Source: an uncultured Bacteroidales bacterium (lineage in GTDB: Bacteria > Bacteroidota > Bacteroidia > Bacteroidales > VadinHA17). Taken from it: 64,000 nt of DNA. Below the pieces are notes generated by a model. That model did no database searches. It saw nothing but the letters and a program-made list of their open reading frames with translations, and was not told the origin of the DNA. The stretch is taken from positions 159,932-223,931 of the forward strand of contig CAVTPX010000005.1 of NCBI GenBank assembly GCA_963736735.1, written 5' to 3'. Below are positions 12,047 through 37,998 of this stretch, piece after piece; positions within the stretch are counted from its first letter, which is position 1; the number at the start of each line of letters is the position of its first letter. A program made the position numbers and the translations under genes.

Positions 12047-12096
12047 AACGCCGGTGCCGCAGAGGCAGCCGGTACTGTGAACAAATACTTACTGAA

Positions 12097-12789: not shown

Positions 12790-12808
12790 TATACACGAGA
12801 TAACAGTT

Positions 12809-16449: not shown

Positions 16450-16456
16450 TAGTTTT

Positions 16457-18421
16457 ATGAAAAATAGAACTCTATGGATTATCATGTTTACGGTACTGTT
16501 TTCAGCATGCGCCAGGAATCATGAACAAAAGCCGGTAAATAATGCATGGTTGTTAACGCCTGAACTGACTTCGGTGAGTGTGAATGATAATTTCTGGACA
16601 CCCCTTATAGAACGCAACCGGACAGCCACAATACCTTATACTTTCGGTAAATGTGAAGAGACCGGACGCATTGACAACTTCGCGATAGCCGGAGGACTCA
16701 TGAAGGGCAAACACACAGGGGAACGGTACAATGACTCGGATGTATTCAAAATTATAGAGGGTGCCTGTTATTCACTCATTGAAACACCCGATCCTAAGCT
16801 GCGCAGCTATGTGGACAGCCTTGTTACATTGATTGCAGCAGCACAGGAAGATGACGGTTACCTTTATACAACCCGCACTATTGATTCGGTAAACATGGCT
16901 CCCGGTGCGGGCAGGGAAAGATGGATCGATGAACGTGTCAGCCATGAACTCTACAATGTGGGACATATGTATGAGGCTGCTGTTGCTCATTACCAGGCGA
17001 CCGGGTCGAATGTCTTCCTGGATGTAGCGCTTAAGAATGCTGAACTGGTTGCGAAGGAGTTTGGCTGGGGTCTGAGGGAGATTGCTCCAGGGCACCAGGA
17101 AATCGAGATAGGACTTATAAAACTCTATGATCTGACCGGCGATAAGCAGTGGCTGGAGCTGGCACAGTTCTTTATTGATGTACGCGGCAGGAAGGGAGAA
17201 TATGTAAGGCATCCTGAGAAGTCGCGGTTTGAAGTCTATAATGACTCCATTTATCTTCAGATGCATAAGCCCGTTCTTGAACAAACGGAAGCAGTTGGCC
17301 ATGCAGTCAGGGGTGCCTACATGTACACGGCAATGGCTGATCTTTCACGGGCAACAGGTGAAGACAAATACCTTGAAGCATCTCAGCGGATTTGGGATGA
17401 TGTAACAGCAGGCAAGATATACGTTACCGGAGGAATTGGATCAAAGGAATTTGGTGAGGCCTTCGGGGAAGCTTATGAGCTGAACAACATGGATGCATAT
17501 ACAGAAACCTGTGCATCAGTGGCAAATGTATTCTGGAATCACAGGCTCTATACTGCAACAGGAGATGCAAAGTACCTTGATGTTCTTGAAAGGACTCTCT
17601 ATAACGGACTAATCTCCGGAATCGGGACTGACGGATGCAGTTTTTATTATACTAATCCCCTGGAGTCGGATGGCCGTTTTGAACGCGCCGGTTGGTTCGA
17701 CTGTTCCTGCTGTCCCGGCAATGTAGCACGCTTAATGCCTGCAATGAAACAGTATATATGGTCTGTTTCCGATCAGGGTGTGAATGTTAACCTCTTCATC
17801 GGATCTGTTGCAAAACTGAAGACAGGTGCAGGCGATGTTGAACTGAAACAGACTACCGGGCTTCCCTGGAAGGGTGATGTGACAATAAATGTCGATCCTG
17901 CAGTTAACAATACCGCGTTCCGTCTGAGTTTACGTATTCCGGCATGGACAGGTGATGTCCCGATGGCAGGAGGACTTTACAGGTATATTACACCGGCAAA
18001 GGAAAAACCAGTGCTGAAAGTCAACGGGAAAAAGATCGCAATTAATGTACAGAAGGGCTTTGCAGTCATTGACAGATCGTGGAAAAGGGGAGATGTTGTC
18101 ACCCTGTCGCTCCCGATGGAACCCCGTTTTATAATTGCCAGGGATGAGGTAAAAGCTGACAGCGGACGGGTTACAATTGGTGCAGGCCCCCTTGTTTACT
18201 GTATCGAGGAAGTTGATAACGGTAAGATAAGCGATCTGCAAGTGGATCCGGCAACAGTTGTTGTAAGCGGTTTCGACGAGGCAATATTGGGCGGCATCGG
18301 CAAACTAACTTTTGTAGCTGAGAAAGCTGACGGCTCTCAGAAGGAGGTGAAGGCAGTGCCTTACTATTCCTGGGCCAACAGGGGCAAGGGAGAGATGCAG
18401 GTTTGGATGAAAATAAAATAA
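16457..18421 (+). CDS. GH127 beta-L-arabinofuranosidase-like lipoprotein, copy 2
   Basis: 654 aa paralogue of copy 1, with HELYNVGHMYEAAVAHYQATG, YTETCASVA and CSCCPGNV. It starts 7 nt after copy 1. Confidence 0.9.
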   Translation: MKNRTLWIIMFTVLFSACARNHEQKPVNNAWLLTPELTSVSVNDNFWTPLIERNRTATIPYTFGKCEETGRIDNFAIAGGLMKGKHTGERYNDSDVFKIIEGACYSLIETPDPKLRSYVDSLVTLIAAAQEDDGYLYTTRTIDSVNMAPGAGRERWIDERVSHELYNVGHMYEAAVAHYQATGSNVFLDVALKNAELVAKEFGWGLREIAPGHQEIEIGLIKLYDLTGDKQWLELAQFFIDVRGRKGEYVRHPEKSRFEVYNDSIYLQMHKPVLEQTEAVGHAVRGAYMYTAMADLSRATGEDKYLEASQRIWDDVTAGKIYVTGGIGSKEFGEAFGEAYELNNMDAYTETCASVANVFWNHRLYTATGDAKYLDVLERTLYNGLISGIGTDGCSFYYTNPLESDGRFERAGWFDCSCCPGNVARLMPAMKQYIWSVSDQGVNVNLFIGSVAKLKTGAGDVELKQTTGLPWKGDVTINVDPAVNNTAFRLSLRIPAWTGDVPMAGGLYRYITPAKEKPVLKVNGKKIAINVQKGFAVIDRSWKRGDVVTLSLPMEPRFIIARDEVKADSGRVTIGAGPLVYCIEEVDNGKISDLQVDPATVVVSGFDEAILGGIGKLTFVAEKADGSQKEVKAVPYYSWANRGKGEMQVWMKIK

Positions 18422-18431
18422 TAAACTGATA

Positions 18432-20849
18432 ATGAAGACATTAAATGTAATTCTGACAGGTGCCGCGGCGATAATGATCGTGGCTGCTTCCTGTTCCAAA
18501 GAAAACAAGGATGAGAACTATCCGATCAGACCAGTGCCTTTCACATCAGTGAAGATGACTGATAAATTCTGGGCACCCCGCATTCAGAAAAACCACGAAG
18601 TCACAATACCGATCGCCTTCGGGTTCTGTGAATCAACAGGCAGGGTTAAGAACTTCGAAATTGCAGGCGGACTCGATACAGGAGCCTTTCAGACAATATA
18701 TCCGTTTGACGATTCCGACGTTACAAAAATAATCGAGGGAGCAAGCTATTCACTTCAGACTTTTCCTGACCCGGAACTCGAAGCTTATCTCGATACACTA
18801 ATATATAAGATAGGACTCGCACAGGAAGATGACGGTTACTTATATACAAACCGCACAATCGCAGAAATGGGGTACGGCAAGCTTCACGACTGGGTTGGTG
18901 AAAAGAGATGGGAGACTGATAATATTCTTAGTCATGAGCTTTACAACCTCGGTCATATGTATGAGGCGGGCGTTGCTTATTACCAGGCTACTGGCAAGAG
19001 ATCACTTCTCGATATCTGCATAAAATCGGCAGACCTTGTTGATCACGATCTGGGCTGGGATGCCTTTGTGACCTATCCCGGACACCAGGTCATTGAAATG
19101 GGTCTTGTCAAACTTTACAGAGTTACAGGTGAAAAGAGATATCTGGACCTTGCAAAATTCTTCCTTGATGCACGAGGAACACGGGATGACGGGGAAGAGT
19201 ATTCGCAGTCACATAAGAAGGTTGTTGATCAGACTGAGGCCGTAGGTCATTCGGTAAGAGCTACATATATGTATTCAGGGATGGCTGACGTTGCAGCAAT
19301 CATGAAGGATGAGGCTTATCTGAATTCAATAACGAAAATATGGGAAGACCTGGTTTACAAGAAGATGTACATTACCGGCGGTATTGGAGCCAGTGGCGGG
19401 AACGAAGGCTTTGCCGAACCCTACAGCCTGCCCAATATGTCAGCTTACTGCGAGACCTGCGCCTCAATAGGTGATATATTTTTCAATCACCGGCTTTTCT
19501 CACTGCACGGTGAGGGCAAGTATTTTGATGTGCTCGAGAAGACACTCTATAACGGAGCACTGTCAGGGGTCAACCTTGCCGGCGACAGGTTCTTTTACCC
19601 CAATCCACTTGAATCAAACGGTCAGCATGAGCGGTCAGCCTGGTTCGGCTGTGCCTGCTGTCCTTCGAATGTTGCACGTTTTATTCCGGCTATTCCCGGG
19701 TACATTTACAGCGTAACCGATAAGGATTTGTATGTAAACTTATTCGCTTCAAATAATGCTGATATAGCCGTTGGGAGGAATAAGGTGGGAGTGACCCAGG
19801 AAACAAATTATCCGTGGGAAGGTGAAGTAAAAATTACTTTAAACCCGGAGAAATCAGGTAAGTTTAAGCTGCATATCCGTATTCCGGGCTGGGCCCGCAA
19901 TGAAGCCATACCTGGCGGGCTATACACTTTTGCAGACCAGAATGAAGAAGAATACTCGTTAAAAGTAAACGGTGAAGAGTTTGCTGCAGAGTTAACAGAC
20001 GGTTATGCAGTCATCTCCCGTAACTGGAAGCCGGGTGATATTGTGGAACTGTCATTGCCAATGCCGGTTCGGCCCGTATCAGCTGATACAAAGGTTAAAG
20101 AAGATGTTGACAAATATGCAATTCAGCGCGGACCACTGATGTTCTGTGCGGAATGGCCTGACAATCCCGAGGGACAGGTTCTCAACCTTGTAATTGATGA
20201 GAAACCGGAATTCAAAACAGAGTTCAGGGGAAATCTTCTCAACGGTACTGAGGTTATAAGCACAAAGGCACGGCAGTCTGTCAGGGGTCTTGACGGCTCG
20301 GTATCACTCGGAGAATATGAGGATGTGACACTGATACCTTACTTTTTGTGGAATAACAGGGGCGGGGGTGAAATGAGAGTTTGGTTCCCCTACAGGGAGA
20401 CGAGTGCCAGGCCTTCGCCGGCACCAACTATTGCATATACAAGTAAGATTACCGGCAGCATTCAGAACAGGTCACTGCTCTCAGTGGCAGACCAGTTTGA
20501 GCCTGCAAACTCCAATGACCACACCTGGCCCTACTACCACTGGTGGCCCAACAGGGACAAATGGGAATGGGTACAGCTTGACTTTAAAGAGAGGCAGACC
20601 ATTTCAAAGGTCAGAGTTTACTGGTTTGATGATGGTCCGTTCGGCGGGTGCAGGATTCCTGATGAATTTGAGGTACTATACAGTGCCGGTGGAGCTCTTA
20701 AGAAAGTTGAAACAATTTCGCCGCTTACGGTGGTCAAAGATGCCTGGAATATCGTCGAATTCACTCCGGTTTCTGCAACCGGAGTGCAACTAAGGGTGAA
20801 ACTAAACAAGGATTTTGCTTCCGGAATTCACGAAATAGTGGTCGAGTGA
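18432..20849 (+). CDS. GH127 beta-L-arabinofuranosidase-like protein, copy 3, with a C-terminal discoidin-like module
   Basis: 805 aa. The GH127 core has HELYNLGHMYEAGVAYYQATG, YCETCASIG and CACCPSNV. An extra ~147-aa C-terminal domain (nt ~20406-20846) reads WEWVQLDFKERQTISKVRVYWFDDGPFGGCRIPDEFEVLY...GVQLRVKL...GIHEIVVE. Confidence 0.9.
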   Translation: MKTLNVILTGAAAIMIVAASCSKENKDENYPIRPVPFTSVKMTDKFWAPRIQKNHEVTIPIAFGFCESTGRVKNFEIAGGLDTGAFQTIYPFDDSDVTKIIEGASYSLQTFPDPELEAYLDTLIYKIGLAQEDDGYLYTNRTIAEMGYGKLHDWVGEKRWETDNILSHELYNLGHMYEAGVAYYQATGKRSLLDICIKSADLVDHDLGWDAFVTYPGHQVIEMGLVKLYRVTGEKRYLDLAKFFLDARGTRDDGEEYSQSHKKVVDQTEAVGHSVRATYMYSGMADVAAIMKDEAYLNSITKIWEDLVYKKMYITGGIGASGGNEGFAEPYSLPNMSAYCETCASIGDIFFNHRLFSLHGEGKYFDVLEKTLYNGALSGVNLAGDRFFYPNPLESNGQHERSAWFGCACCPSNVARFIPAIPGYIYSVTDKDLYVNLFASNNADIAVGRNKVGVTQETNYPWEGEVKITLNPEKSGKFKLHIRIPGWARNEAIPGGLYTFADQNEEEYSLKVNGEEFAAELTDGYAVISRNWKPGDIVELSLPMPVRPVSADTKVKEDVDKYAIQRGPLMFCAEWPDNPEGQVLNLVIDEKPEFKTEFRGNLLNGTEVISTKARQSVRGLDGSVSLGEYEDVTLIPYFLWNNRGGGEMRVWFPYRETSARPSPAPTIAYTSKITGSIQNRSLLSVADQFEPANSNDHTWPYYHWWPNRDKWEWVQLDFKERQTISKVRVYWFDDGPFGGCRIPDEFEVLYSAGGALKKVETISPLTVVKDAWNIVEFTPVSATGVQLRVKLNKDFASGIHEIVVE

Positions 20850-21124: not shown

Positions 21125-24100
21125 ATGAAACCTGACTTATTTATTAAGATGCGTTTACTGATCTGTTTGTTCCTGTTTACCCTGGTACCGCTATCGGTAT
21201 TCGGGCAAACCAGAACTATCACAGGTACAGTGGTTGATGAGAGTGGCGAAACTCTCCCGGGCGTGACAATAGTTATAGAAGGAACTACCAGGGGAGTTAC
21301 CACCGATTTTGACGGTAAGTTCAGTATTGCCGCCACACCGCAAGAGGTTCTTGTCATTTCCTTCGTGGGTATGACAACGGCTAATATTACGGTGGGATCC
21401 CAGACTGTAATTAACGTAATCCTTAAAGCTGCAGTCTCTGAGATTGAGTCTGTTGTTGTAGTTGGATACGGTGTACAGAAAAAAGAAACTGTTGTCGGTG
21501 CCGTTTCACAGGTCTCCGGCGAAAAGATCCGCACCATGAAGATGGGTGGCGCCATTGAGAATAACCTGCAGGGAATGTTGCCCGGCATGGTGGTTCTTAT
21601 GCAGGATGCCACCCCGGGTGAAGAATCCAGATCAATCACAATGCAGATCAGGGCAGGAGCTTCAATGGGCAATAACACTCCCCTCATTCTTGTTGACGGT
21701 GTGGAAAGATCTTTTTCAAATATTGATCCAAATGAAATTGCATCCATCTCTATACTCAAGGATGCTTCGGCAACTGCCGTTTACGGTGTAAAGGGTGCCA
21801 ACGGTGTTGTCATTGTAAATACCAAGAGAGGCAGGGAAGGCGCCCTCGAACTTGAATTCTCGTCAGAGACTATGCTGAAAGCGGCAACACGGCTCCCTGA
21901 GTATATGAACTCATATGAGACCATGCTACTCAGGAATGAGGCCTACAGCAATGACGGTAAATGGACAAGCCTTATAGGTAATGATGCTCTCGAGCACTAT
22001 CGTACAGGGGATTCTCCATATCTCTATCCGGACTTCGACTGGATGGATTTTTATTTTAAACCGGCAGTTGACCAGAACTACAACCTGAATGCCCGCGGCG
22101 GTAATAAGTTCGTACAGTATTTTGTATCTGTAGGCTATCTGTCGGAAGGTGATATTTTTGATGTAGGCTCCCTCTTTCCCTATTCATACGAAAAACATGA
22201 TGCCTCATACTGGCATAAGAGGTACAATTTCAGGAACAACCTCGACTTTAACCTGACCAAGTCGACAAAACTTTCAATCAACCTGGCGGGAAACCTTAAG
22301 GTCTGGAATAAACCTACTGACGACTATACTCAGGAACAGTGGTTTGAAGCTGTGACCTCGATGCCGTTTTACCCGGAAGAGGCAGTACAGCAGTTCCCGG
22401 ATGACAGGATCCCTTATGATCAGACAGGGATAAGATATTTTGAGAATCCGCAGCAGGGTGAAGTAAGGATGCACTGGCTTGGCGCCCGCGGCTTCCGCCG
22501 CAATAAAAGCAACGGAGTCTCCACTGATGTAAATCTTGAACAGAAGCTCGATTTTATAACCGAAGGCTTATCTGCATCGGCCTACTACTCATTTAATACA
22601 GATATTGCTCACAGCCAGAATTTTAATCTGGATTATATGTTCGGGTACTATCTTAATCCTGCCGATTCCACCTGGTCAAGATACACAAACAACCAGGTAC
22701 TGGACCTGGATACACCCCAGCCAAAGCTTAATGTAAACAACTCCGAAAGCCTGTCAAGTGCCTCAAGAAGCACATATTACAAGGGCCAGTTGAACTATGT
22801 CCGCAGCTTCGGTAAACATAATGTTACAGCAGTAGGTGTATTCAGTCGCAGACAGTCGCGCGGCATTTCAACCTTTCCCTCATATGAGGAGAACTGGGTG
22901 GCTCGTGCTACTTATAATTATGATGAGAGATATCTGTTTGAATCCAGTATCGCCTACACCGGGTCCGAAAAATTTGCTCCTGGTCTTCGTTTCGGAACAT
23001 TTCCTTCATTTGCTGCAGGGTGGCTTGCCTCAGAGGAAGACTTCTTTAAAAATGCACTTCCGTGGGTGAACTACTTTAAGACCCGTTTTTCATGGGGTAT
23101 GGTAGGTAGTGACGCCGGCATTGCAAGGTGGCTCTATATATCAGAGTATACAAACGGTGGACGGGACATCCGGTTTCGGATATCCGATGACAATGTATCC
23201 CAATATCAGTGAAGGAACAATTCCGGTGACTGATGCCACCTGGGAGACAGCAAGAAAATCAGACCTCGGGTTTGAAATGGGGTTCTTCAATAATCAGATA
23301 ACCCTGAATATTGACCTGTACGATGAGCACCGTACAAATATTCTTCAGGCCAGAAGGTCAGTCCCTTCGTGGGTTGGCGTAAGCTCCATCCAGGGAAACA
23401 GTGGTGAAACAAAGGCCCACGGTATTGAGCTGGAACTTGGTCTTAACCATACATTTAACAAACTCACCCTGCAGCTTCATGGCACACTTGCCGCCAATGA
23501 GAGCCGGGTTGTTTCATATGATGAACCGGATGCTAAACCGGAACACCTCTCTGTTGAGGGCAAGCCTGTAGGTGTTGCCCAGCGTATGTACTGCTCAGGG
23601 ATACTTGATGATGGCTTTTATCAGAGTTTTGATGAACTGTTTATGTATCCGCGTGCGGCAGGTGTTGCTCCTATACTGGGCGACTTTAAATACCTGGACT
23701 ATAATGGTGACGGAACTGTTAACGCCTCCGACAAGATAGTGGCGGCCAATCCGTATGCACCTGCTGTTACCTGGGGACTGAACCTTGCAGCTTTATACAA
23801 AAAGTGGACTGCCAGGGTTGACTTCTACGGTATCAGTTCAACTTCCTACCCGATGAGACAGGGTGGTATGTTCTTCCTTTATCCGTTCTCCCAGAACAAG
23901 GATAACGCCTATACTTCACACGCCGACCACTGGACACCTGAAAACAGGGATGCAACATGGCCGGCAGTACATGCAGTAGCAACCGATCAGTACAACTACC
24001 AGGCAAACTCATTTGCAATCGTAGACGGCAAATATACAAGGCTGAAGAATGTTGCCCTGTCATACAGAATGGACGCTCCGGTCCTCGGCAGAATAGGTGT

Positions 24101-24257
24101 AAAACAGGTTGACCTGACTTTTACAGGTACCAACCTTCTGACCTGGACTCCCGGATTCAGACTCGGCGGTGACCCTGAAGGATTCAACTCAGGTGTTGAC
24201 TTTGGCGCATATCCGATGATGAAACGTTTCACATTCGAGGTAAGGCTATTGTTCTAA
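21125..24257 (+). pseudogene. SusC/RagA-family TonB-dependent transporter 1, one +1 frameshift near 23160 (or a sequence error)
   Basis: Fragments 21125..23212 (frame 2) and 23109..24257 (frame 3) are collinear. The N-terminus is TITGTVVDESGETLPGVTIVIEGTTRGVTTDFDGKFSI (CarboxypepD_reg) followed by VVVGYGVQKKETVVGAVSQV (the SusC plug entry). The C-terminus ends in a barrel strand, ...FTFEVRLLF. Confidence 0.85.
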
Positions 24258-24276
24258 ACAGGTAAAAACTACGAAA

Positions 24277-26031
24277 ATGAAAAAGATAATATTATTTTTT
24301 CTTCCGATAGCCCTCCTGTTCCAGGGATGTGAAGAATATCTTGATAAAGTACAGGAGTCGTCCGGAATGGATGAAACCCAGGTATTTACAGACTATAATA
24401 ACTTCCGCAGGTTTGAAGACAGGATGTACAAGGACATGCATGACTACCTGGCCGACTATGACTACGGCATGATAGCTGCAATTTGCGATGAAGGTTATAC
24501 CGAATCAGCCCAGTGGGAAACAATGGGGATTGTACAGTCAGGTGACTGGATTCGTGCCTACAGCACTGCCCAGGCTCTTCAGTTCAGCGCTATATGGACC
24601 GCATGGCAGAGCATCAGGATAGCAAATATTTCACTTCAGAAGTTACCGATGCTTGAAGGAAATGCTACTCAGACACAGATTAATGAGCTTGAGGGGCAGG
24701 CACGGTTTATGCGTGCCTGGTACTATTATGAGTTTCTGAAAAGACAGGGAGGCATGCCTTATCTTACTGAGCCTCTTGGAGGTTCAGACAACTATGCATT
24801 ACCCAGGCTTTCTTTCCATGAAACAGCACTTAAAATAGCTGAAGACTGTGACGCTGCAGCCGATCTGCTACCTGCAAAATGGGATATGGCCAATATCGGA
24901 AGACCTACTAAAGGCGCTGCAATGGCGGTGAAGGCATCTGCTTTGCTCTTCTCTGCAAGCCCCTCAAATAATCCCGGGAATGATCAGGCCAAATGGCAGG
25001 TTGCCGCACAGGCTTCATGGGATATAATTGCATTTGCCCAGTCAACTGGAACATACAAACTGATGCAGTCAAACGGGACAGACCAGATTACATATACCGG
25101 CCCCGGAGGTGTAAAGACAATAACCTATCCGAGTGGGTTTGACAGCATTTTCATGTATACACCCTATAATGATGAGATTATCTGGGAGTTTTATGAAAGG
25201 ATGAATTCCGGAGGTCAGTACAGCACCTTTACAATTGCCAGTCTGGCAGAAGGCGGAATTATCCAGGGTTACAGCCCTTCACAGAATATTGTCGACCTGT
25301 TTGAAACAAAGAACGGTCTCGCAATAGATGATGATCCTGCCTATGATCCTCAGAATCCTTATGTTGACAGGGACCCCAGGTTCTACCACAGTATTCTTTT
25401 TAACCGTGAACGCTGGACCAGCGGAACAAACCTGTACCTCGAGCTCTATAACGGAGGTCGTGACAGAGCCAGCGGAGACCTGAAGCACTATTCATATACA
25501 GGTTACCTGGCACGGAAATTCTGGGGCAAAAACGTTGACCTCTGGTCAGGTTCCGGAGCTCCTTTTACACATACAATATATTTCCGGTATGCTGACATCC
25601 TGTTACAATATGCTGAAGCCGCCAATGAACTCGGAGGACCCGGTTACACTCTTCCCGGAGCCACAATGAGCGCAGTACAGGCACTGAACCTCGTCAGGGC
25701 ACGTGTAAATATGCCTGGGGTTAGTTCGACATATCTTGCAAGCAAGGAAGCTTTCAGAGAGAGAATAAAGAGTGAGAGAGCAGTAGAGCTATACCTTGAG
25801 GGAAAGCGTTTCTTCGACCTTTCCCGCTGGGGCGATGCTCACAAGCAGGAACATAAGGAAATTTACGGCGTAAACTTCGTTGATGACGCCAGCAAACCGA
25901 CAGGGTATACAATCTCACGCACTCCTGGTCCGATCTACACTCTCGTATTTGATCAGAAACATTATAAGTGGCCCATACCCCTTAATGATGCAATGATGTT
26001 CAAGGAGTTCACACAGAACCCGGGATGGTAG
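24277..26031 (+). CDS. SusD/RagB-family lipoprotein 1
   Basis: 584 aa with a lipoprotein signal (LLFQGCEEYLD). The RAWYYYEFLKRQGGMPY region, ERAVELYLEGKRFFDLSRW and the C-terminal FTQNPGW are canonical SusD-like features. Confidence 0.9.
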   Translation: MKKIILFFLPIALLFQGCEEYLDKVQESSGMDETQVFTDYNNFRRFEDRMYKDMHDYLADYDYGMIAAICDEGYTESAQWETMGIVQSGDWIRAYSTAQALQFSAIWTAWQSIRIANISLQKLPMLEGNATQTQINELEGQARFMRAWYYYEFLKRQGGMPYLTEPLGGSDNYALPRLSFHETALKIAEDCDAAADLLPAKWDMANIGRPTKGAAMAVKASALLFSASPSNNPGNDQAKWQVAAQASWDIIAFAQSTGTYKLMQSNGTDQITYTGPGGVKTITYPSGFDSIFMYTPYNDEIIWEFYERMNSGGQYSTFTIASLAEGGIIQGYSPSQNIVDLFETKNGLAIDDDPAYDPQNPYVDRDPRFYHSILFNRERWTSGTNLYLELYNGGRDRASGDLKHYSYTGYLARKFWGKNVDLWSGSGAPFTHTIYFRYADILLQYAEAANELGGPGYTLPGATMSAVQALNLVRARVNMPGVSSTYLASKEAFRERIKSERAVELYLEGKRFFDLSRWGDAHKQEHKEIYGVNFVDDASKPTGYTISRTPGPIYTLVFDQKHYKWPIPLNDAMMFKEFTQNPGW

Positions 26032-26061: not shown

Positions 26062-29000
26062 ATGAAAAATATGAAAAATAAAATATTCAGAACTGTGTTG
26101 ATGTTTTGTGCCCTGTTCAGCATTTTTGCAAGCAGCACAGCCTATCCCCAGGAAAGGCAGATATCAACAGTAACAGGTCAGTGGCCAGGTGATTACTGAC
26201 GATGCACAACCTGTGCAGGGAGTTTTAGTGAAGGCATTTAATACAAACAAAGTTGCCTTTACGGATCTTCAGGGTAACTTCTCTGTTGAAGTCTCTACAG
26301 GTCTGACTGACAGGCTTTCAATCAGCCATGACGGTTTTCTTCAAAAGATTGTTACGGTCGAACCGGGCAATGCTGAGTTGGGAACGGTTGCCCTTGAAAG
26401 AAAGATTTCATTCAGCGGTTCTAACATCGAACAGTTGCCATACAGGTCACTCACAAGCGACCGTAACGTATCGGCTGTTTCAACAATTACCGGTGAAGAA
26501 CTTACTTCATATCCGTCAACAACTTTACTCGACGCGCTCGCCGGCAGGATACCCGGACTTGTAATACAGCCCAATTCGACGATGCCCGGTCAGGAATCAT
26601 TTACTGCATACCTGAGAGGCTCGGTAGCAAACATCTACATTGATGGCGTTATGAGAGACATTACAGGCCTGTCAGCCGCCGAGGTCGATGAAGTACAGGT
26701 TATAAAAGATCTGTCAGGAAGGGCTATGCTCGGGCTTTCAGGGTCAGGCCCTGTCATCTGGATTACAACCAGGAAGGGAACCGGCTATGACAGGGATATA
26801 AGTGTCTCGGCAGAATACGGTTTAAGTTCACCAACATCACTTCCGAAATACCTTGATTCGTATAATTATGCCACCTTGCTTAACGAGGCGCTGGATAACG
26901 ACGGTCAGGCTCCCAGGTACACTCAGGCTGATCTTGACGCATATAGCAGTAATTCAAACCCCGTTCGCTACCCGAATGTGGATTATTACGGACAATATGT
27001 AAAACAAAACGCTCCTTTCCGTAAAGCCAATATCAACTTTGCCGGAGGAGACAACAGGGTAACCTACTTCTCAATGTTTGATTACGTAGGAAACAGCGGA
27101 CTGGAAACAGTTGGCGAGAAAATTAAAAATGACAGATACAAACTGAGAGGGAATGTTGCAATCAGACTCAATGACTTCATGAGAATGAGTGTCAATATTT
27201 CGGCTTCGATGAACAAACAGCGCTTCCCGAATGCAGGCAGCGGCGCTGGTGTCTACAATATGTTCAATATCCTGTCGACATATCCGTCAAATGCCCATCC
27301 GGTATCATTTAATGACCTGCTTATCAGAAGCGATAACTACCCTGTAAACCTGGATAATGAACTTATGTATTCCGGCTTTGCCGAAGGCACAATACTGAAT
27401 GCGCAGAACAATGCCAAACTGTTCATTGATCTGGGAGGCGTCATAAAAGGACTATCGATGATAGGATCTGCCTCATTCGATGTCTCTGACGAACTTATTA
27501 ACAACAAGGGCGGTACAGCTGCACTTTACCGTCTCGAGCGCACATCTCTGGGAGCTGATACGGCCGTGAGAGTAGTGGAGGCACAGAATGTTACCTCAAT
27601 GTCACTCGGGTCCTTCGATATACTGAGAAGAACAGCAGGATATGTGGGAATGAATTACGACCGTGAATTCGGAAAAAGTTCACTCACCGCCGATGCAACA
27701 TTCTACATTGCACTGGAGGAGTTGAGAGCTACAGGTGCCGGTTATCAGCCTTCCAAGGTTGAGGATCTCTCCTTCAGGGCCAATTACTCATATGACAAGA
27801 GGTATGTCGCCCAGCTTGATCTGGCATATTCTGGCAGTAACAGAATGCCGGCCGGAGAAAGATTCTCCCTCTATCCCACACTCGGTCTTGGATGGATTGT
27901 AAGCAATGAGTCCTTCCTGAAAGGCAATTCGCTGATTGATTACCTGAAAGTTTTCACCTCGGCCGGTATAATGGGAGTTAATGACTATTATCTCGCAGGT
28001 TATAATCCCTTCTACCTTCAGGAAACACTCTGGACTTTAAATGGCGGATGGGCTCCGGGAATTGCAGGTAACGGTGGCGAATGGGTCGATACTTACGTAT
28101 TGCTCCAGACCGGTACTGACAATTTTGTGCTGCCGAAGAAACGCTACTTCAACCTTGGCACCCAGGCAACCCTTCTCGATAAATCACTTGCTGTGGAAAT
28201 CAACTACTTCAATGAGAAGAATTATGACAAGATTTCCAACATGGGTGCAACCACTCCTTCTATTATAGGAAGCCCGCAGGCATTACCCGCAGTCAATTTC
28301 GGTGAAGATGTACGCTGGGGACTTGACGCTTCAGTTCAGTTAAGCAAAAGCGCAGGAGAATTCAGGTATGGTCTTGGTGTCAATGCAATGTACATGAGGG
28401 CAAAGTACCTTGTGGTTGATGAGCCTTCAGCCCTTGAGGATTACAAAAAACTTGCAGGCACTGATATGGATGCCTTCTGGCTATATGAAGCCGAAGGACT
28501 CTTCCAGGATGCAGGCGAGATAACTTCAAGGAATATAGATCAAAGCTGGGGCGCCCTTCAACCGGGGGATATCAGGTATGCAGATATTAACAATGACAAT
28601 GTTATTGATGAAAACGATATTCATGCAACTGACTTCCATTCACCCAGATTATTCTACGGTGTCAATCTGTCGGCCGGATACAGGGGGGTAAACCTTTATG
28701 TCCTCGGACAGGGCGTTGCAGACGGAAGCACGATGCTTGCATCTGACCGCTACTTCAGGGTCAACGGTTCAACCCAGAACTACTCCGAACTTATGCTTGA
28801 CCGATTCCCGGTTACAAATAATTATCCGAGACTCACCACCGTTTCACAGAATAACACACAGTATTCTACTTTCTGGGTCGCCGGTGCAGCTTTCTTCAGG
28901 CTGAAGAATGTCGAGCTGAGTTACACATTCCCGGAAACTGCCTCTCAGAAACTGGCGATGACCAATCTGAGGGTATTTGCCAGAGGAACAAACCTGGCTG

Positions 29001-29110
29001 TATTTTCCGGTCTGAAAAAATACAGTGTGGATCCTGAGAATATAACTGCAGGTATTAACGGCTATCCCCTTTTCAGGACAGTCACTGCGGGAGTTTCCTG
29101 TAAATTCTAA
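26062..29110 (+). pseudogene. SusC/RagA-family TonB-dependent transporter 2, +1 frameshift near 26185 (or a sequence error)
   Basis: The signal peptide MKNMKNKIFRTVLMFCALFSIFASSTAYPQERQISTVTGQ is encoded from 26062 in frame 1 and stops at 26197-26199. The protein continues in frame 2 (ORF 26189..29110) with VITDDAQPVQGVLVKAFNTNKVAFTDLQGNFSV, then a plug and a barrel ending ...TAGVSCKF. Confidence 0.8.
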
Positions 29111-29127: not shown

Positions 29128-31296
29128 ATGAAACGATTTATAGTATTTTTCATAACAGCAGTTCTGACGGTCTCCTGCGAATTTCTTGATCCCAGGCCTA
29201 TAATGGATCTCACTACTGATGAGCTCCTCAGCAACGCCCAGTATGGTGAAGGATTACTTACAGGAGCCTATATGAACCTTAATACAGATTACATCGATTA
29301 TCTGGATTATTATACAGACAATGCCGTTCCTTCGGTACCCGGGGGCAACAGCATAGCTCTTGGCAACTGGACAGTTCAGAACAACCCGATTGGTGAATGG
29401 AACAGGTGGTATGAAAGCATCGGGTACCTCAATATGTATCTGAGGGATTGCAAGGACCTGCTTTTCAGTGTTTCTGACCCTGGTCTCAATAATATCCTTC
29501 AGAAAAACAGGAGAGGTGAAGCTTTTTTCCTGAGGGCATATTATCAGTGGCTGCTTTTGCAGACCTACGGAGGATATCCTGATGGCGGTACCACCGCACT
29601 GGGATTCCCGATAGTAACCACGGTCCTTACCACTGGCGATGAGCTTGATCTTCCGCGTAACACCTATGAAGAGTGCGTTGCCCAGATTGCAAAAGACTGT
29701 GATTCCGCAATAGTGCTTCTTCCAAAATGGTACAACGGGACCAGTTCCTGGGATAACCTGAGCAATCGGGGCAGGGCTGATGCAATGTCAGCACATGCAC
29801 TGAAGGCAAGGGTGTATCTTTATGCTGCAAGTCCGGCATACAGTGAGTCCACCCCGGAGCTCTGGCAGCGTGCTGCACTGGTAGCCCGCGATGCAATGGT
29901 GTACTACGGCGGCAACAACCTTCATACCCTTGAAAGGATTGCAACTGACGGAGGAAGTCTTAATAACATCTTTATACAGCCATCTTATAACTCGAACGAC
30001 TGGGAATATGCATTCTACCCACCATCACTTTACGGTCGCGGTGAATGTAACCCTTCACAAAACCTTGTTGACGAGTTCCCAATGATGGACGGCTACCCGA
30101 CCAGTATAAGCCCACTTTTTAATCCGTCAAAGCCTTATGATAACCGTGACTCACGCCTTGGCAAGTTCATCTTCTATAACGGGATGACATACAACGGTAC
30201 TACGGTTAAGACATATACCGGAGGGACCGACGCCCCCGGAGGCCTGAGTATCCAGGGAACACGCACAGGTTACTACCTGAAAAAATGGCTTAATTCCAAT
30301 GTCAGACTGACACCGGGCAATGTCACCACAAGTGCCAGGTTTAAGGTTTTCCTTGGAAAAACGGAGCTCTACCTGAACTTTATCGAGGCAGCAAACGAGG
30401 CATACGGTCCGGATGATGCTTCACTGGGATTCTCTGCAAACGCTGTTCTTAAGCTGTTCAGAGACCGCGCGGGTATTGACTCAAATCCCACTACTTCAGG
30501 ATTGCAGGATCAGTACAGGCTTGACCAGGCCGCTGCAGGTAAAGATGCTTTCCGTGAACTGATACGGAGCACAAGACGAATTGAACTCAGTTTTGAGGGA
30601 TTCCGCTTCTGGGATATCAGACGATGGGACCTGCCTCTTGACCATACGGTAACTGGTGCAGATATCACAATACCAACGACGCCGCCAGTTCTTGATAACA
30701 CAAATATTGCCATGGGATCTACAGCCTCGACTGATTATGTGTCATCATGGGAAACACTGACTGCCATAAACGACGGGTTCACTCCTGCCAGCTCAACCGA
30801 TAATGACCACGGCAAATACGGGAACTGGAACAGCAGTAATACTGACAGGTACGTTCAGTATGATTTTCCGAACTACATCGCCCTGAACGGTACAAGCAAT
30901 GTCTACATTGTTAACCAGTCAGACGTATACTGGTTCACTGACGGTGGCGGACTCCTTTTGCCTGATGTAACTTTTGTGGAATACTGGAATATGACAGCCG
31001 GAGCCTGGCAAACAGTACCTTCACCCGTTGGAAACGGAGCAGCTGCTGATCAGTGGAATATCACAACCTTCCAGCCGGTTACGACCGACAAGATCAGGCT
31101 GCATACGAAAAGTAACACCGAGTCAACCGGAATTATCGAGTGGAAAGTGTGGGGCTACCCTGCCAATTCAGTTAGCTTTGACTTCCAGACAAAGAATGTA
31201 GAAACACATTCTTTCCAGGAATACATGAGATATATCCCTGTACCTTACAGCCAGACCCTGGTGATGAGTAATCTGAAACAAAACAGTGGATGGTAG
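29128..31296 (+). CDS. SusD/RagB-family lipoprotein 2 carrying an inserted discoidin-like module
   Basis: The likely start is the Met at 29128 (MKRFIVFFITAVLTVSCEF). The SusD hallmarks are AFFLRAYYQWLLLQTYGGYP, RRIELSFEGFRFWDIRRW and the C-terminal NLKQNSGW. About 168 aa (nt ~30667-31170) lie between the RFWDIRRW region and the terminal IPVPYSQ segment and have no counterpart in SusD-like 1. Confidence 0.85.
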   Translation: MKRFIVFFITAVLTVSCEFLDPRPIMDLTTDELLSNAQYGEGLLTGAYMNLNTDYIDYLDYYTDNAVPSVPGGNSIALGNWTVQNNPIGEWNRWYESIGYLNMYLRDCKDLLFSVSDPGLNNILQKNRRGEAFFLRAYYQWLLLQTYGGYPDGGTTALGFPIVTTVLTTGDELDLPRNTYEECVAQIAKDCDSAIVLLPKWYNGTSSWDNLSNRGRADAMSAHALKARVYLYAASPAYSESTPELWQRAALVARDAMVYYGGNNLHTLERIATDGGSLNNIFIQPSYNSNDWEYAFYPPSLYGRGECNPSQNLVDEFPMMDGYPTSISPLFNPSKPYDNRDSRLGKFIFYNGMTYNGTTVKTYTGGTDAPGGLSIQGTRTGYYLKKWLNSNVRLTPGNVTTSARFKVFLGKTELYLNFIEAANEAYGPDDASLGFSANAVLKLFRDRAGIDSNPTTSGLQDQYRLDQAAAGKDAFRELIRSTRRIELSFEGFRFWDIRRWDLPLDHTVTGADITIPTTPPVLDNTNIAMGSTASTDYVSSWETLTAINDGFTPASSTDNDHGKYGNWNSSNTDRYVQYDFPNYIALNGTSNVYIVNQSDVYWFTDGGGLLLPDVTFVEYWNMTAGAWQTVPSPVGNGAAADQWNITTFQPVTTDKIRLHTKSNTESTGIIEWKVWGYPANSVSFDFQTKNVETHSFQEYMRYIPVPYSQTLVMSNLKQNSGW

Positions 31297-31336: not shown

Positions 31337-32698
31337 ATGAAAAAGATATTTATAATCATAACGCTGGCAGTCTTTCTGACAAGCTGCTACGACGAGTTCA
31401 GAAATGACTATCCATATACGACTGTTGCCTTTTCAACCGTCACCGGCGGACTCAATACCGCAGGTGAACTCGGGAGGACAGTTGTCAAGGACGAAGGCCT
31501 TAAACTTGACATTGGCGTCTATCTTGCCGGTGTGCTTGAAAATAAGGATGACAGATGGGTCAGGTATACAATTGATCCTGCCCTCCTGGCCGGTACTTCC
31601 TATACGCTCATGCCAACCAGCTACTACACGTTGAGCAATCCAAATACATTTGAGATTCCCGCTGGTGATTTTATTGGAAGAGTCACGGTTACCCTTGATT
31701 CAGCAGCGTTTCTTGCAGACAACAAATCTGCAAGTTATTCGTACGCAATTCCGATAAGATTGACTGAAACTTCCGCCGACTCCATACTTTCATCACAGAA
31801 TACCAAGATCGTTGTTATTAAATACATTAACCATTATGAAGGTTATTATGATAACACCGCATCATTTGTAAATTATGATGCAGGCGGCGGAGAGATGGGT
31901 TCAGACACAAAAGCCTCAGTGATCGATGCTAAAACGATCACTCTCGATTCTATCCTTGCAGACGGTGTAAACTACCTCGTGGGAGAGAACTACATGATTA
32001 AAATGGCTGTCAGACCTGATAAATCCGTATGGTTCAAGAAGCTTCCGAGCCCTCCGCAGGTGGCCAAGAATCTCGCACCCCAGGCTACCCTTGTTTCTAC
32101 ATCATATGTTTCCAGTTGGGAAAAACTCGAAGCAGTACGTGATGGATATGATCCGACAAGTTCAACGGACAAGAATGGCGCTGCATATGGTAACTGGAAT
32201 AGCTCAAATACCTGGAGATGGGTTCAGTACGACTTCCCCAGAGTTTGTAAAATCACTCAGTCTGACATCTACTGGTGGACTGACGGTGGAGGTATCCAGA
32301 TACCTGATGAAACATATGTCGAATACTGGAATGAAACAACCCAGGCATGGGCAACAGTACCTAATCCGGTTGGGAACGGAATTGTAATCAATCAGTACAA
32401 CATCACAACCTTCGACGAAGTTCTGACAACAAAGATCAGGGTTTGGATGATTGACCATGTCGAATCATGCGGTATCCTTGAATGGAAGGTGTGGGGTATC
32501 CCTGTACCGGTAACACCGGAACAGGCCATCATCGCTGATGTGGTTGCTGACGGTGCCAATACATTCGATCCTGCAACCAGCACTTTTACTCTGAACTATA
32601 AGGTGACTTATGAAAATGAAACTTATTATACAAAAGTCTCGTCGAAAATGATCTGGAGAAACAGGGTCAGAGACAAAGTCAACGAATGGAGAAGGTAG
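31337..32698 (+). CDS. Surface glycan-binding-protein-like lipoprotein (DUF1735/DUF4361-like) with an internal discoidin-like module
   Basis: The likely start is the Met at 31337 (MKKIFIIITLAVFLTSCYDEF). The N-terminal part resembles DUF1735 (YTLMPTSYYTLSNPNTFEIPAGDFIGRVTVTL). The module at nt ~32050-32510 is ~65-70% identical by eye to the insertion in the preceding SusD-like gene. The tail MIWRNRVRDKVNEWRR resembles DUF4361-type ends. Confidence 0.6.
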   Translation: MKKIFIIITLAVFLTSCYDEFRNDYPYTTVAFSTVTGGLNTAGELGRTVVKDEGLKLDIGVYLAGVLENKDDRWVRYTIDPALLAGTSYTLMPTSYYTLSNPNTFEIPAGDFIGRVTVTLDSAAFLADNKSASYSYAIPIRLTETSADSILSSQNTKIVVIKYINHYEGYYDNTASFVNYDAGGGEMGSDTKASVIDAKTITLDSILADGVNYLVGENYMIKMAVRPDKSVWFKKLPSPPQVAKNLAPQATLVSTSYVSSWEKLEAVRDGYDPTSSTDKNGAAYGNWNSSNTWRWVQYDFPRVCKITQSDIYWWTDGGGIQIPDETYVEYWNETTQAWATVPNPVGNGIVINQYNITTFDEVLTTKIRVWMIDHVESCGILEWKVWGIPVPVTPEQAIIADVVADGANTFDPATSTFTLNYKVTYENETYYTKVSSKMIWRNRVRDKVNEWRR

Positions 32699-35283: not shown

Positions 35284-37998
35284 ATGAAAACGTCACGAAT
35301 TCTTATTTTGTTTTTAATTGCCTTTCTTGGACTTGCAGTGACACTGCCGGGCACCGGAAAGCAGAAGACGCAGGCAGAAAAGGCGAATGTCGCCGTTCTT
35401 GCCAATTTAAGCTCATCGGCACGCGGTGGAGGCCAGCTGACAGGACTGAATGACGGTCTGACCCCCAACACTGTTCCCGATCAGATGAGACAGTATATGA
35501 CAAGACCCCAGACAGGTAACAACCGCAGACCGTCACGTCTCACGGCACAGTGGTTTCAGTACGACTGGGCTTCGCCTGTAACGATTGACGAGGTGGCTCT
35601 CTACTGGTACAATTTCGATAACCTGGCAAAATTTCCGCAGGTGTACAGGCTGAAATACTGGGACGGTAAAGATTTCGTTCCGGTCAGCAATCCTGTCGGT
35701 CTCGGAATGGAAAATGACAAGTATAATAATACCTCATTTAACGAAGTGACAACGACCAGGCTGAGGCTTGAAGTCGATTCGGTCGACCGTTTCTCTAACA
35801 CCATCCTCGAATGGAAGGTGCTTAAGACTCTGAATTCGCCCGAGGTGGCTCCTGTCATTACAGCAGGCGGTGACCGTGATGTTGTTGTGGGTGGCAAAAC
35901 CTATCTTTCAGCTTCGATTAAGACTGTGGATCCTTTGAAGAATACTGCATGGACAGCAAAAGGTCCCGGAAAAGTTGTGTTTGCTGATCCTGCAGCACTT
36001 GTAACAACAGCCACATTCAGTACTCCCGGTGATTATGTATTGACACTTAGTTCCCAGGCAGGCACGATGAAATCATCGGCTGCACTGAATGTCAAAGCGG
36101 TCTTCCCGCCAAAAGAAAAGAGACTTGATGTAGTCTATACAAAGAGGTACAAGATTGATAATCCGCTTTGGAATGAACGGGCAAAGACGCTCATAACCAA
36201 CTGGATACCTTATTGTGTCAACCAGATTGAACGGACTGATCTTACTGAGGGCCAGGGCGGACTTGATAACTTCGTCGAGGCAGCGAAAGCTCTTCGCGGC
36301 GAAGCCCACGGGAAGCATCTGGGTTACGTATTTTCGAATGCCTGGGTACATCAGACTGTAGAGTCGATGTGCATTGCACTCATGGTTGATCCGCAGGGAG
36401 ACCCTGAAATAATTGCTGCACAGGAAAAGATGAAGGTTACCCTTGAGAAATGGATTCCAATCATTCTTGCTGCACAGGAGCCTGACGGTTATCTGCAGAC
36501 GGCATTCACACTTCGTGACACGGCACGCTGGCATAACAGATGGGCTCCCCAGACACGCGGAAACCATGAAGGTTATGTGGCAGGTTATTTTATCGAGTCA
36601 GCCATAAACCATTATACTCTCACTGAGGGCAAAGACAGGAGACTTTACGATGCAGCCAAGAAACTCTCTGACTGCTGGGTTGCCAACATTGGCCCCGGTA
36701 AGATTATCTGGTTCGACGGTCATCAGGAAATGGAACAGGCGCTTGTGCGTTTCGGAAGATTTGTAAATGATATGGAAGGTAACGGTCGCGGCGACAGTTA
36801 TGTTGCCCTCGCCAAATTCCTGCTTGACAGTCGTGCCGGCGGCAGTGAATATGATCAGAGTCATGTTCCTGTACAGCAGCAGTACGAGGCTGTCGGACAT
36901 GCCGTACGCGCGGTTTATAACTATTCTGCAATGGCCGATGTGGCTGCAGAGACAGGTGATGTCGATTACCAGAGCGCTGTGATGTCACTGTGGGATAACA
37001 TGGTAAACAAGAAGTACTATGTCACCGGTGGCGTAGGAAGCGGTGAAACATCTGAAGGTTTCGGTCCGAACTATTCGCTGCGCAATAATGCCTATTGCGA
37101 GTCATGCTCTAGTTGCGGTCTTATTTTCTTCCAGCATAAGATGAATATCGCATACCATGATGCAAAGTATGCTGACCTGTATGAGGAAACGATGTATAAT
37201 GCACTCCTTGGATCAGTCGATTTCGCAGGGAAGAATTTCTACTACACAAACCCACTGGCCTCCTCTTCAGGCCGCACTGCATGGCATGTATGTCCGTGCT
37301 GCGTTGGCAACATTCCGCGTACGCTGTTGATGATCCCTACCTGGACATATGTAAAAAGCGATGACGGCATCTATGTTAACCTTTATATCGGCAGTACAAT
37401 CAATGTTGAGAAAGCCGCCGGCACTGACATCGAGATGGTTCAGAAAACTGACTATCCGTGGAAGGGCGACGTTTCGATAACTGTAAACCCGAAACAGAGT
37501 AAGAAATTCACTGTATTTGTACGTGTTCCTGACCGCAAAACCAGCGAGCTTTACACTTCGGTTCCGGCACTCAATACCCTGAAGTCACTGGCAGTGAATG
37601 GCAAGCCTGTTCCGATGAAAATCGACAAGGGTTATATTGCAATTACCCGCGAATGGAAAAAGGGTGACAAAATTGATCTTGTAATCCCGATGGAGGTACA
37701 GCAGATTACCGCTGATGAAAAGATTGAAGCCAACAGGGGTCGTATTGCATTCCGTTACGGTCCGCTGATTTATAACGTGGAGAAGGCTGACCAGCCTGAC
37801 ATCAACCAGTCAGTTGGAGCAGGCACTTTCAAGGCACTGTGGAATCCTGATATGTTCAACGGCATCATGACAATTAACGGTACCTGGGCTGACGGAACAC
37901 CGCTTCTGTCCATTCCGAACTATCTGAGAGCCAACCGTCTTCCGGCAGAACGACCAGCAGACAGAGCTCCTGCCTTTATGGTCTGGATGACAAAGTAG
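35284..37998 (+). CDS. GH127/GH146-superfamily (DUF1680) enzyme with an N-terminal discoidin-like module and an Ig-like domain
   Basis: 904 aa. The N-terminal module (nt ~35383-35826) reads AQWFQYDWASPVTIDEVALYWYNFDNLAKFPQVYRLKYWDGKDFVPVSNPVG...TTRLRLEV...ILEWKVL. The catalytic region has [29 protein letters not shown] and VCPCCVGNI. Confidence 0.8.
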   Translation: MKTSRILILFLIAFLGLAVTLPGTGKQKTQAEKANVAVLANLSSSARGGGQLTGLNDGLTPNTVPDQMRQYMTRPQTGNNRRPSRLTAQWFQYDWASPVTIDEVALYWYNFDNLAKFPQVYRLKYWDGKDFVPVSNPVGLGMENDKYNNTSFNEVTTTRLRLEVDSVDRFSNTILEWKVLKTLNSPEVAPVITAGGDRDVVVGGKTYLSASIKTVDPLKNTAWTAKGPGKVVFADPAALVTTATFSTPGDYVLTLSSQAGTMKSSAALNVKAVFPPKEKRLDVVYTKRYKIDNPLWNERAKTLITNWIPYCVNQIERTDLTEGQGGLDNFVEAAKALRGEAHGKHLGYVFSNAWVHQTVESMCIALMVDPQGDPEIIAAQEKMKVTLEKWIPIILAAQEPDGYLQTAFTLRDTARWHNRWAPQTRGNHEGYVAGYFIESAINHYTLTEGKDRRLYDAAKKLSDCWVANIGPGKIIWFDGHQEMEQALVRFGRFVNDMEGNGRGDSYVALAKFLLDSRAGGSEYDQSHVPVQQQYEAVGHAVRAVYNYSAMADVAAETGDVDYQSAVMSLWDNMVNKKYYVTGGVGSGETSEGFGPNYSLRNNAYCESCSSCGLIFFQHKMNIAYHDAKYADLYEETMYNALLGSVDFAGKNFYYTNPLASSSGRTAWHVCPCCVGNIPRTLLMIPTWTYVKSDDGIYVNLYIGSTINVEKAAGTDIEMVQKTDYPWKGDVSITVNPKQSKKFTVFVRVPDRKTSELYTSVPALNTLKSLAVNGKPVPMKIDKGYIAITREWKKGDKIDLVIPMEVQQITADEKIEANRGRIAFRYGPLIYNVEKADQPDINQSVGAGTFKALWNPDMFNGIMTINGTWADGTPLLSIPNYLRANRLPAERPADRAPAFMVWMTK

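Follow-up and report, generated by a model that had tools for sequence, protein, structure and literature searches.

A SusD-family lipoprotein with a galactose-binding-domain-like module nested in its C-terminal hairpin, from a GH127-rich Bacteroidales locus

Nutrient import in Bacteroidota centres on the SusCD transporters, and their canonical SusD-like lids (surface glycan-binding protein A, SGBP-A), such as BF3747 (3QNK), BF0978 (3I4G), BT1762 (5LX8/6Z8I) and SusD itself (BT3701; 3CK7), have a lipoprotein signal, SusD-like_3 and SusD_RagB domains, a tetratricopeptide repeat-like alpha-helical fold, a gene directly 3' of that for a TonB-dependent transporter of the SusC-like type, and the motifs ..EGxRFWDxRRW.. 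and ..QNxGW. Nesting of a carbohydrate-binding module (CBM) within another domain is familiar from SusG, in which CBM58 is inserted in the GH13 catalytic domain. Inserted CBMs are also described in GH10 xylanases (PMC7848910). In a 2026 review and in the introduction of a 2023 preprint, SusD-like proteins are portrayed as almost entirely alpha-helical, with a single binding site and no similarity to CBMs, and the preprint contrasts them with the CBM-bearing surface glycan-binding proteins (SGBPs). One such architecture, DUF1735 joined to a discoidin-type domain, is discussed for polysaccharide utilization loci (PULs) in PMC11216935. Here we describe SusD2, a SusD-family lipoprotein that carries a galactose-binding-domain-like beta-sandwich in the turn of its C-terminal hairpin, and that is encoded in a 64,000-nucleotide stretch of DNA from an uncultured Bacteroidales bacterium (assembly GCA_963736735.1, contig CAVTPX010000005.1, positions 159,932 to 223,931 of the forward strand; hereafter the window). 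The architecture is real and conserved, and apparently undescribed; it is built from familiar parts and common in sequence databases, and we think it reasonably likely that SusD2 is a genuine lid of a tandem SusCD system whose nested module serves as a second, cis-tethered glycan-capture site.

By every testable criterion SusD2 is a member of the SusD/RagB family, and it shares with the canonical lids all of the features listed above. Its N-terminus is a lipoprotein signal (MKRFIVFFITAVLTVSC), lipidation itself being a prediction, and Cys17 is invariant among the 117 homologues that were aligned. Pfam places SusD-like_3 (PF14322) on residues 18-231 (67.8 bits against a gathering cut-off of 27) and SusD_RagB (PF07980) on residues 289-554 (114.7 bits against 23.1), the latter match breaking off at position 235 of the 297 in the profile. 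Both conserved motifs are present, near-invariant columns mark the C-terminus (M700, Y702, P704, P706 ... G721, W722), and the gene adjoins SusC2 on its 3' side. Unlike SusD2, the solved SusD structures that we matched have no discrete beta-sandwich domain at the hairpin. The parts of SusD2, with window coordinates, are:

29128..31296, + strand: SusD2, SusD/RagB-family lipoprotein with a nested domain (722 amino acids, a single stop-free frame)
29128..29178, + strand: SusD2 lipoprotein signal peptide, with lipobox Cys17 at its end (..LTVSC), read directly from the sequence
30643..30669, + strand: hairpin strand 1, residues 506-514 (HTVTGADIT), the final SusD element ahead of the insert (DSSP on the AlphaFold2 model)
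30673..31167, + strand: inserted galactose-binding-domain-like (CBM71/CBM32-like) beta-sandwich, residues 516-680 (orthologues, AlphaFold2, Foldseek)
31180..31209, + strand: hairpin strand 2, residues 685-694, where the SusD chain picks up again (DSSP on the AlphaFold2 model)
31210..31293, + strand: conserved C-terminal segment (..MRYIPVPYSQTLVMSNLKQNSGW), with near-invariant columns, aligning with the C-terminus of SusD1

Comparison by BLASTP with SusD1 (24277..26031, 584 amino acids), the SusD of the first SusCD pair in the locus, exposed the extra residues. SusD2 aligns over residues 1-500 and then over its last 19 residues only, leaving about 200 residues without a SusD1 counterpart where the corresponding SusD1 stretch is about 48 residues long. 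Measured between motifs, SusD1 has about 48 residues from GKRFFDLSRW to PIPLND, and about 66 from GKRFFDLSRW to its end, and SusD2 has about 201 from FRFWDIRRW to YIPVPY. Insert-free close orthologues (about 560 amino acids), which pin the site down to the residue, read ..HTVKGVKITNN-EG-VFSYEYTDVE.. at this site, where SusD2 reads ..VTGADITI, followed by the insert (P516 to N680) and SVSFDFQTKNVE.., with the resumed chain beginning SVSFDF; strand 506-514 aligns with HTVKGVKIT of the insert-free proteins and strand 685-694 with their FSYEYTDVE. An earlier sequence-only reading of this DNA had proposed a nested insertion rather than a terminal fusion, and the resumption of the C-terminal strand and of ..QNSGW after the insert bears this out. 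Its estimate of about 168 residues at 30667..31170 is refined to about 165 residues (516-680) at 30673..31167, a shift of at most two codons per end. The same reading had set the insertion just before the C-terminal strand; the insertion stands, and its exact site is the tip of the C-terminal beta-hairpin, about 40 residues from the C-terminus.

The survey of orthologues that had been suggested at that stage showed that SusD2 is one of many such proteins. Loop length at the hairpin is strictly bimodal in the 117-sequence alignment, with 152-171 residues in 47 sequences and 5-9 residues in 68; two further, truncated entries with loops of 109-111 residues are counted among the carriers. The insert is present in 49 of the 117 sequences (48 homologue clusters found by search, at 50-99% identity to SusD2, and the window protein) and absent from 68, many of which come from marine Flavobacteriia, and all inserts occupy the identical hairpin turn. 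Genomic loci gave the same picture, the insert being found in six independent loci of metagenome-assembled genomes (MAGs; L001-L006) and in L081, a complete Labilibaculum euxinus chromosome of 5.2 Mb. The Labilibaculum SusD2 has 724 amino acids, SusC2 and SusD2 lie at 6909..12175 of L081, and the genes there are ordered hybrid two-component system (HTCS) regulator, SusC1, SusD1, SusC2, SusD2, DUF1735 lipoprotein, two DUF6055 genes, a GH43 with an F5/8C domain, and two GH127. A look-up of the exact sequence of the window protein gave no record, and the best genomic matches of SusD2 lie in a Bacteroidales MAG (L011, 74%) and a Rikenella-like MAG (L001, 70%). In the former, the insert-free SusD2 orthologue is split in two 300-amino acid open reading frames (ORFs; 9911-10810 and 10776-11675), probably through a frameshift error. 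The inserted domain itself shows an indel polymorphism: a loop of 9-12 residues at 30850-30890 of the window (residues about 581-592, FPNYIALNGTSNVY) is found in the window insert and many others, whereas neither the SGBP paralogues described below nor the inserts of P0003-P0006 and P0008 have it.

Full-text literature searches returned no account of a domain nested within a SusD, and there is no specific NCBIfam model for insert-bearing SusDs, which NCBI names 'RagB/SusD family nutrient uptake outer membrane protein'. Precomputed Pfam annotation of the orthologues P0003-5, P0008 and P0009 already contains PF00754 together with PF07980. The earlier suggestion of an undescribed architecture therefore holds for the literature that we searched, but sequence databases contain it commonly, and Pfam annotation already reveals it in part.

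To characterize the fold, we built an AlphaFold2 model of full-length SusD2 from the 117-row alignment. This model of SusD2 alone, another of the checks proposed earlier, was confident (predicted local distance difference test, pLDDT, 90.9; predicted template-modelling score, pTM, 0.81), and consists of a helical SusD body and a long two-stranded hairpin (506-514 and 685-694) with an all-beta domain between the strands. The best Foldseek matches to the full model in the PDB were the SusD structures 3qnk, 3i4g, 7bll, 5cjz and BT1762 (E 1e-21 to 1e-13). All of the SusD structures matched are at most 615 amino acids long, with template-modelling (TM) scores normalised to the query of at most 0.51, indicating that none covers the insert. 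The first non-SusD match, at rank 50, was BgaA (4cub), and it fell on the insert. Modelled alone, the insert had a pLDDT of 95.8 and 154 PDB matches at E <= 1e-3, headed by the CBM71 of Streptococcus pneumoniae BgaA (4cub/4cua; E 1.6e-9, TM 0.65-0.73, about 20% identity) and continuing with a Bacillus circulans beta-galactosidase domain (8q2h), chitosan-binding modules (4zy9/4zxe/4zz5), BbgIII and CBM32s; fucolectin-type modules lay lower in the list, and APC10/Doc1 at ranks 29-30. When the insert profile was compared with PDB sequences, 4cua/4cub were matched at E 1.9e-5, the match being spread over two weak stretches. By its modelled fold, and not by Pfam threshold on the window sequence, the insert belongs to the galactose-binding-domain-like superfamily, and the label 'discoidin-like' that the beta-sandwich had first been given was right at the superfamily level. 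The insert shares its jelly-roll fold with CBM71 and CBM32, but identity to the BgaA CBM71 is only about 20%, and from the locus the ligand of the insert is more likely arabinofuranoside-related than N-acetyllactosamine or galactose.

Mean pairwise identity among the inserts is 47%, and 18 residues are conserved both in the inserts and in the SGBP copies (N526, S539, G550, N566, W567, Q577, Y578, W602, G608, P612, W627, T653, R657, S666, G668, E671, W672 and V674). The wider module family is large: an exhaustive representative search gave 1424 representative clusters at E <= 1e-3, and at E <= 1e-10 there were still 643. Its main carriers are big, secreted proteins of many domains, with DUF6055, PKD, FIVAR or type IX secretion system (T9SS) tails; a single SusD representative (P0026) is among the best 150 of the 1424 clusters. 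A homologue search with the insert profile returned only eight short fragments, and says little on architectures. The best-scoring carriers of the family other than SusDs are the DUF6055 proteins P0130, P0131 and P0133. DUF6055 genes also occur in the orthologous Labilibaculum PUL (L081, 13851-15751), and DUF6055 may be an enzyme acting on the same substrate.

Relatives of the module were found within the locus itself. When the insert was searched with phmmer against all ORFs of the window, three other proteins were matched. The closest copy lies in the SGBP-like lipoprotein encoded immediately downstream of SusD2, in the SusE position, and more distant copies are appended to two GH127 enzymes. 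The features concerned, together with the partner genes of SusD2, are:

21125..26031, + strand: SusC1/SusD1, first pair of the tandem, with SusD1 (24277..26031) lacking the insert (Pfam; tblastn against the L001 orthologue)
26062..29110, + strand: SusC2, partner TonB-dependent transporter, with its N-terminal part frameshifted (Pfam Plug above cut-off; CarboxypepD_reg below the curated cut-off)
31337..32698, + strand: downstream SusE-positioned SGBP-like lipoprotein (Pfam; lipobox MKKIFIIITLAVFLTSC)
32042..32506, + strand: insert paralogue inside the SGBP-like lipoprotein (residues 253-407 of the ORF; 54% identity over 165 amino acids, E 7e-57; phmmer E 4e-54)
20472..20840, + strand: more distant module copy at the C-terminus of the GH127 18432..20849 (phmmer E 5e-10; insert hidden Markov model, HMM, E 1.7e-17)
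35362..35826, + strand: more distant module copy at the N-terminus of the GH127 35284..37998 (phmmer E 1.2e-11; insert HMM E 8e-12)

The SGBP-like lipoprotein consists of a BT_3987-like/DUF1735 N-terminal domain, the insert-type domain, and a weak BT_3044-like C-terminal match that falls below the Pfam cut-off. It has the SGBP-B architecture of DUF1735/BT_3987-like and F5/8-type-C domains, and shares with SusD2 the domain family, the lipoprotein character, the locus and presumably the glycan. The difference lies in placement: in the SGBP-B a DUF1735 spacer precedes the module, which is carried by a lipoprotein of its own, whereas in SusD2 it is nested in the lid, and would therefore move with it. 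At the DNA level the insert and the SGBP copy are 72-75% identical over 123 and 50 nucleotides. The C-terminal module of the GH127 18432..20849 passes the Pfam thresholds of PF22633 (NedA-like) and PF00754 (F5_F8_type_C), and the N-terminal module of the GH127 35284..37998 reaches 25.0 bits for F5_F8_type_C, below the cut-off of 28.2 bits. Each of the 12 loci scanned has an insert-HMM match in its SGBP-like protein (E 1e-31 to 1e-64), whether the SusD insert is present or not, and 8 of the 12 also have matches in modules appended to GH127 (E 1e-7 to 1e-20); the SGBP-like gene is present in all 13 loci examined, again with or without the SusD insert.

The relationships among these copies bear on how the insert arose. 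In a neighbour-joining tree, 165 of 200 bootstraps unite the inserts with the SGBP domains to the exclusion of the GH127 modules. A tree of the SusD cores, computed with the insert columns removed, places the insert-bearing clade of the window as sister to an insert-free clade (99/100 bootstraps), and monophyly of all insert-bearing cores was recovered in 0/100. Independent capture in each locus from its own SGBP was considered and rejected: with the one exception of L006, described below, the inserts are not closest to the domain of the neighbouring gene (36-59% identity within a locus), and all inserts lie at the identical site. A strict single gain followed by purely vertical inheritance was also rejected as the whole story, given the absence of core monophyly and the 6-9 presence or absence changes needed on the core tree. 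We infer instead that a duplicate of an SGBP-type module entered the SusD hairpin turn, probably once, that it would then have evolved along with SusD, and that it may later have been excised or exchanged several times by recombination; the tree of the domains gives weak support to a single origin. The module is an accessory, lost or exchanged at least six times among orthologues on the core tree, and repeated loss on this scale shows that it is dispensable. In L006 (12121-13548), the SGBP domain nests among the SusD inserts, and its insert-HMM match (E 1.8e-64) ranks above that of the insert in its own SusD, a pattern for which gene conversion between the adjacent copies may be responsible.

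The gene content of the locus points to a substrate. GH127 is a beta-L-arabinofuranosidase family, and the window holds four of its members. In order, the genes are an SSF symporter (8385-9820), which looks fragmented; an L-arabinose cassette at 9858-14476, comprising araA, a NUDIX/NrtR-type AraR regulator, araD and araB; three tandem GH127 (14473..20849) directly downstream of it; SusC1/SusD1; SusC2/SusD2; the DUF1735 lipoprotein; a CBM4_9/GH51-like gene; the fourth GH127; and two DUF5695 proteins. The position of the ara cassette directly upstream of the GH127 genes ties the PUL to the release of L-arabinose, and the locus most likely targets glycans bearing beta-L-arabinofuranosides, such as the arabinosides of extensins and other hydroxyproline-rich glycoproteins (HRGP), pectic arabinan or rhamnogalacturonan II (RG-II), or arabinogalactan proteins (AGP). 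The tandem SusCD-SGBP synteny is kept in 13 of 13 loci examined, and the order SusC2-SusD2 in the 12 other loci spanning this position, with only the 3' part of SusC2 contained in L008.

We propose that the insert is a carbohydrate-binding module, a function suggested by its fold, by its paralogues on GH127 enzymes and on the SGBP-like protein, and by its conserved Trp and Asn residues. Held out from SusD's conserved scaffold half by a stalk of two strands, the module would display a putative carbohydrate-binding site, and the lid would gain a second place at which to capture the very glycan bound by the SGBP and the enzymes. Such a site would raise avidity and keep polymer or oligosaccharide near the mouth of the transporter. 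Because the hairpin lies between the last conserved scaffold helix (..EGFRFWDIRRW), which it directly follows, and the conserved C-terminal segment, it is expected to leave the protein from the scaffold half rather than from the variable ligand surface that faces SusC. The canonical site of SusD and the bin of SusC would work as usual, with the module adding to them and to the separate SGBP. The SGBP gene is kept in every insert-bearing locus and the SusD core is equally conserved with and without the insert (entropy ratios 0.90-0.99), which argues for addition rather than replacement; a relaxed constraint on the canonical variable region of SusD in insert carriers, which we also considered, was not seen. 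In a comparison of seven with four loci, SusC2 showed no group-specific indel and one fixed substitution only as signs of co-adaptation to the insert, a result that is either uninformative or weakly consistent with an outward-facing domain. We see about an even chance that insert-bearing SusDs are natural hybrids of SGBP-A and SGBP-B, their module having come from the SGBP gene next door and having repeatedly been exchanged or lost among orthologues, so that the lid tethers polymer through its CBM site and hands oligosaccharide to the SusC bin through its canonical site.

Several observations weigh against the reading of the module as a second glycan-capture site gained once. The window insert falls below all Pfam gathering thresholds, its best match being BgaA-like_CBM at 16.2 bits against 27, and does not reach those of PF00754, PF22633 or PF21606. 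A single insert clade, which includes the SGBP domain of L006, was recovered in only 63 of 200 bootstraps, and the 6-9 changes on the core tree (Fitch parsimony) mark the module as dispensable. GH127 enzymes can also act on 3,6-anhydro-D-galactose in carrageenan catabolism by marine flavobacteria (PMC5698469). The assignment to arabinofuranosides therefore rests on the adjacent ara genes, and, with marine Flavobacteriia among the insert-free orthologues, the ligand is assigned tentatively.

Misassembly was a fair question, since several neighbouring genes in the window are frameshifted. Relative to the L001 orthologues, SusC1 is frameshifted near 23155-23163, and SusC2 at its N-terminus near 26135-26190, where the signal peptide is in one frame and the rest in another; the 815-amino acid CBM4_9/GH51-like gene has two frameshifts, near 33907 and 34225-34301, and is split in three ORFs. 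These lesions suggest that the assembly is prone to indels or that the transporters have become pseudogenes, and a donor-like domain lies only 0.9 kb downstream of the SusD2 insert, so that part of the neighbouring SGBP gene could be imagined to have been fused artificially into SusD2. A fusion of this general sort does exist in the databases. In the NCBI entry P0056 (997 amino acids), an insert-free SusD minus its last ~40 residues continues straight into the DUF1735 lipoprotein encoded downstream, the signal peptide of the latter included (..MKKIALALIMFFLLVSC..), and the entry looks like a read-through or frameshift fusion rather than a second kind of SusD-CBM architecture. We nevertheless give an artefact in SusD2 practically no credence. 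The insert is only 54% identical to the neighbouring copy in protein and 72-75% in DNA, which fits neither a recent duplication nor an assembly chimera, and it is in frame at both ends with the SusD C-terminus kept. SusD2 also aligns with its L001 orthologue in one frame from end to end. Misassembly, which the sequence-only reading had itself named as something that would refute its claim, is ruled out by this alignment together with the survey: the architecture recurs in the 49 carriers, the six MAG loci and the Labilibaculum isolate chromosome, and these records do not go back to one shared pipeline error. Nor is the segment a product of chance, given its match to the SGBP paralogue (E 4e-54) and its confident fold (pLDDT 95.8).

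For a real insert, roles other than glycan capture have to be weighed. A single locus has one module family on its lid protein, its SusE-positioned lipoprotein and two of its GH127 enzymes, which could mean that the module serves in protein-protein docking: these proteins would use it to assemble with one another, or at the rim of SusC2, in a complex of the utilisome type. Galactose-binding-like folds do serve protein-protein roles, as in the APC10/Doc1 matches noted above. We judge this unlikely, because the nearest relatives in structure and sequence are characterised CBMs (CBM71, CBM32, fucolectins), because the 1424 clusters place the family on unrelated secreted multidomain proteins outside SusCD loci, as fits substrate targeting, and because the SusC2 partners of insert-bearing and insert-free loci differ by no indel and by one fixed residue only. 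The insert could also be a tolerated and largely neutral passenger, a duplicated neighbour domain caught in a permissive loop: insertions at a hairpin tip are structurally harmless, and the 6-9 losses or exchanges and the sister relationship of the window clade to an insert-free clade would suit such a history. This too seems unlikely, since an intact and confidently predicted fold is kept across clades whose SusD cores are only ~50% identical, the 18 residues, several of them Trp, Asn or Gly, are still conserved in inserts and SGBP paralogues alike, and no truncated or decayed inserts besides contig-end fragments were seen in the 117-sequence alignment.

A CBM-like module inside a lid blurs the division between the all-alpha, single-site SusD lid and the neighbouring SGBPs that bear beta-sandwich CBMs. 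The closest parallels in construction are the nested-CBM enzymes, SusG and the GH10 xylanases, which share with SusD2, within Sus-like systems, a CBM-type module set in a loop of the host domain instead of being joined to its end; their hosts are enzymes, however, and that of SusD2 is a non-catalytic transporter lid. The C-terminal hairpin of SusD emerges as a permissive site for domain grafting, which may be useful for engineering, and the natural matched pairs, 49 with and 68 without the insert in the same PUL synteny, offer a testbed for the effect of extra binding sites on capture and import by SusCD systems. The comparison also flags an uncharacterised CBM-like family that is widespread (at E <= 1e-10 it comprises at least 643 representative clusters), and ties it here to GH127-rich loci. 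The interest of the architecture would be higher if the module is indeed a functional second binding site on the lid.

Other genes in and around the PUL deserve mention. Three DUF5695 proteins of 840-935 amino acids lie in or next to it, at 38070-40877, 40874-43639 and 50189-52717 (- strand). In a 308-amino acid ORF at 48263-49189 (- strand), a response-regulator receiver domain is joined with one of the thioredoxin/redoxin-like type, and a 681-amino acid ORF at 52853-54898 (- strand) has the unusual combination of an ABC_tran ATPase domain (residues 21-154) with MutS domains III and V.

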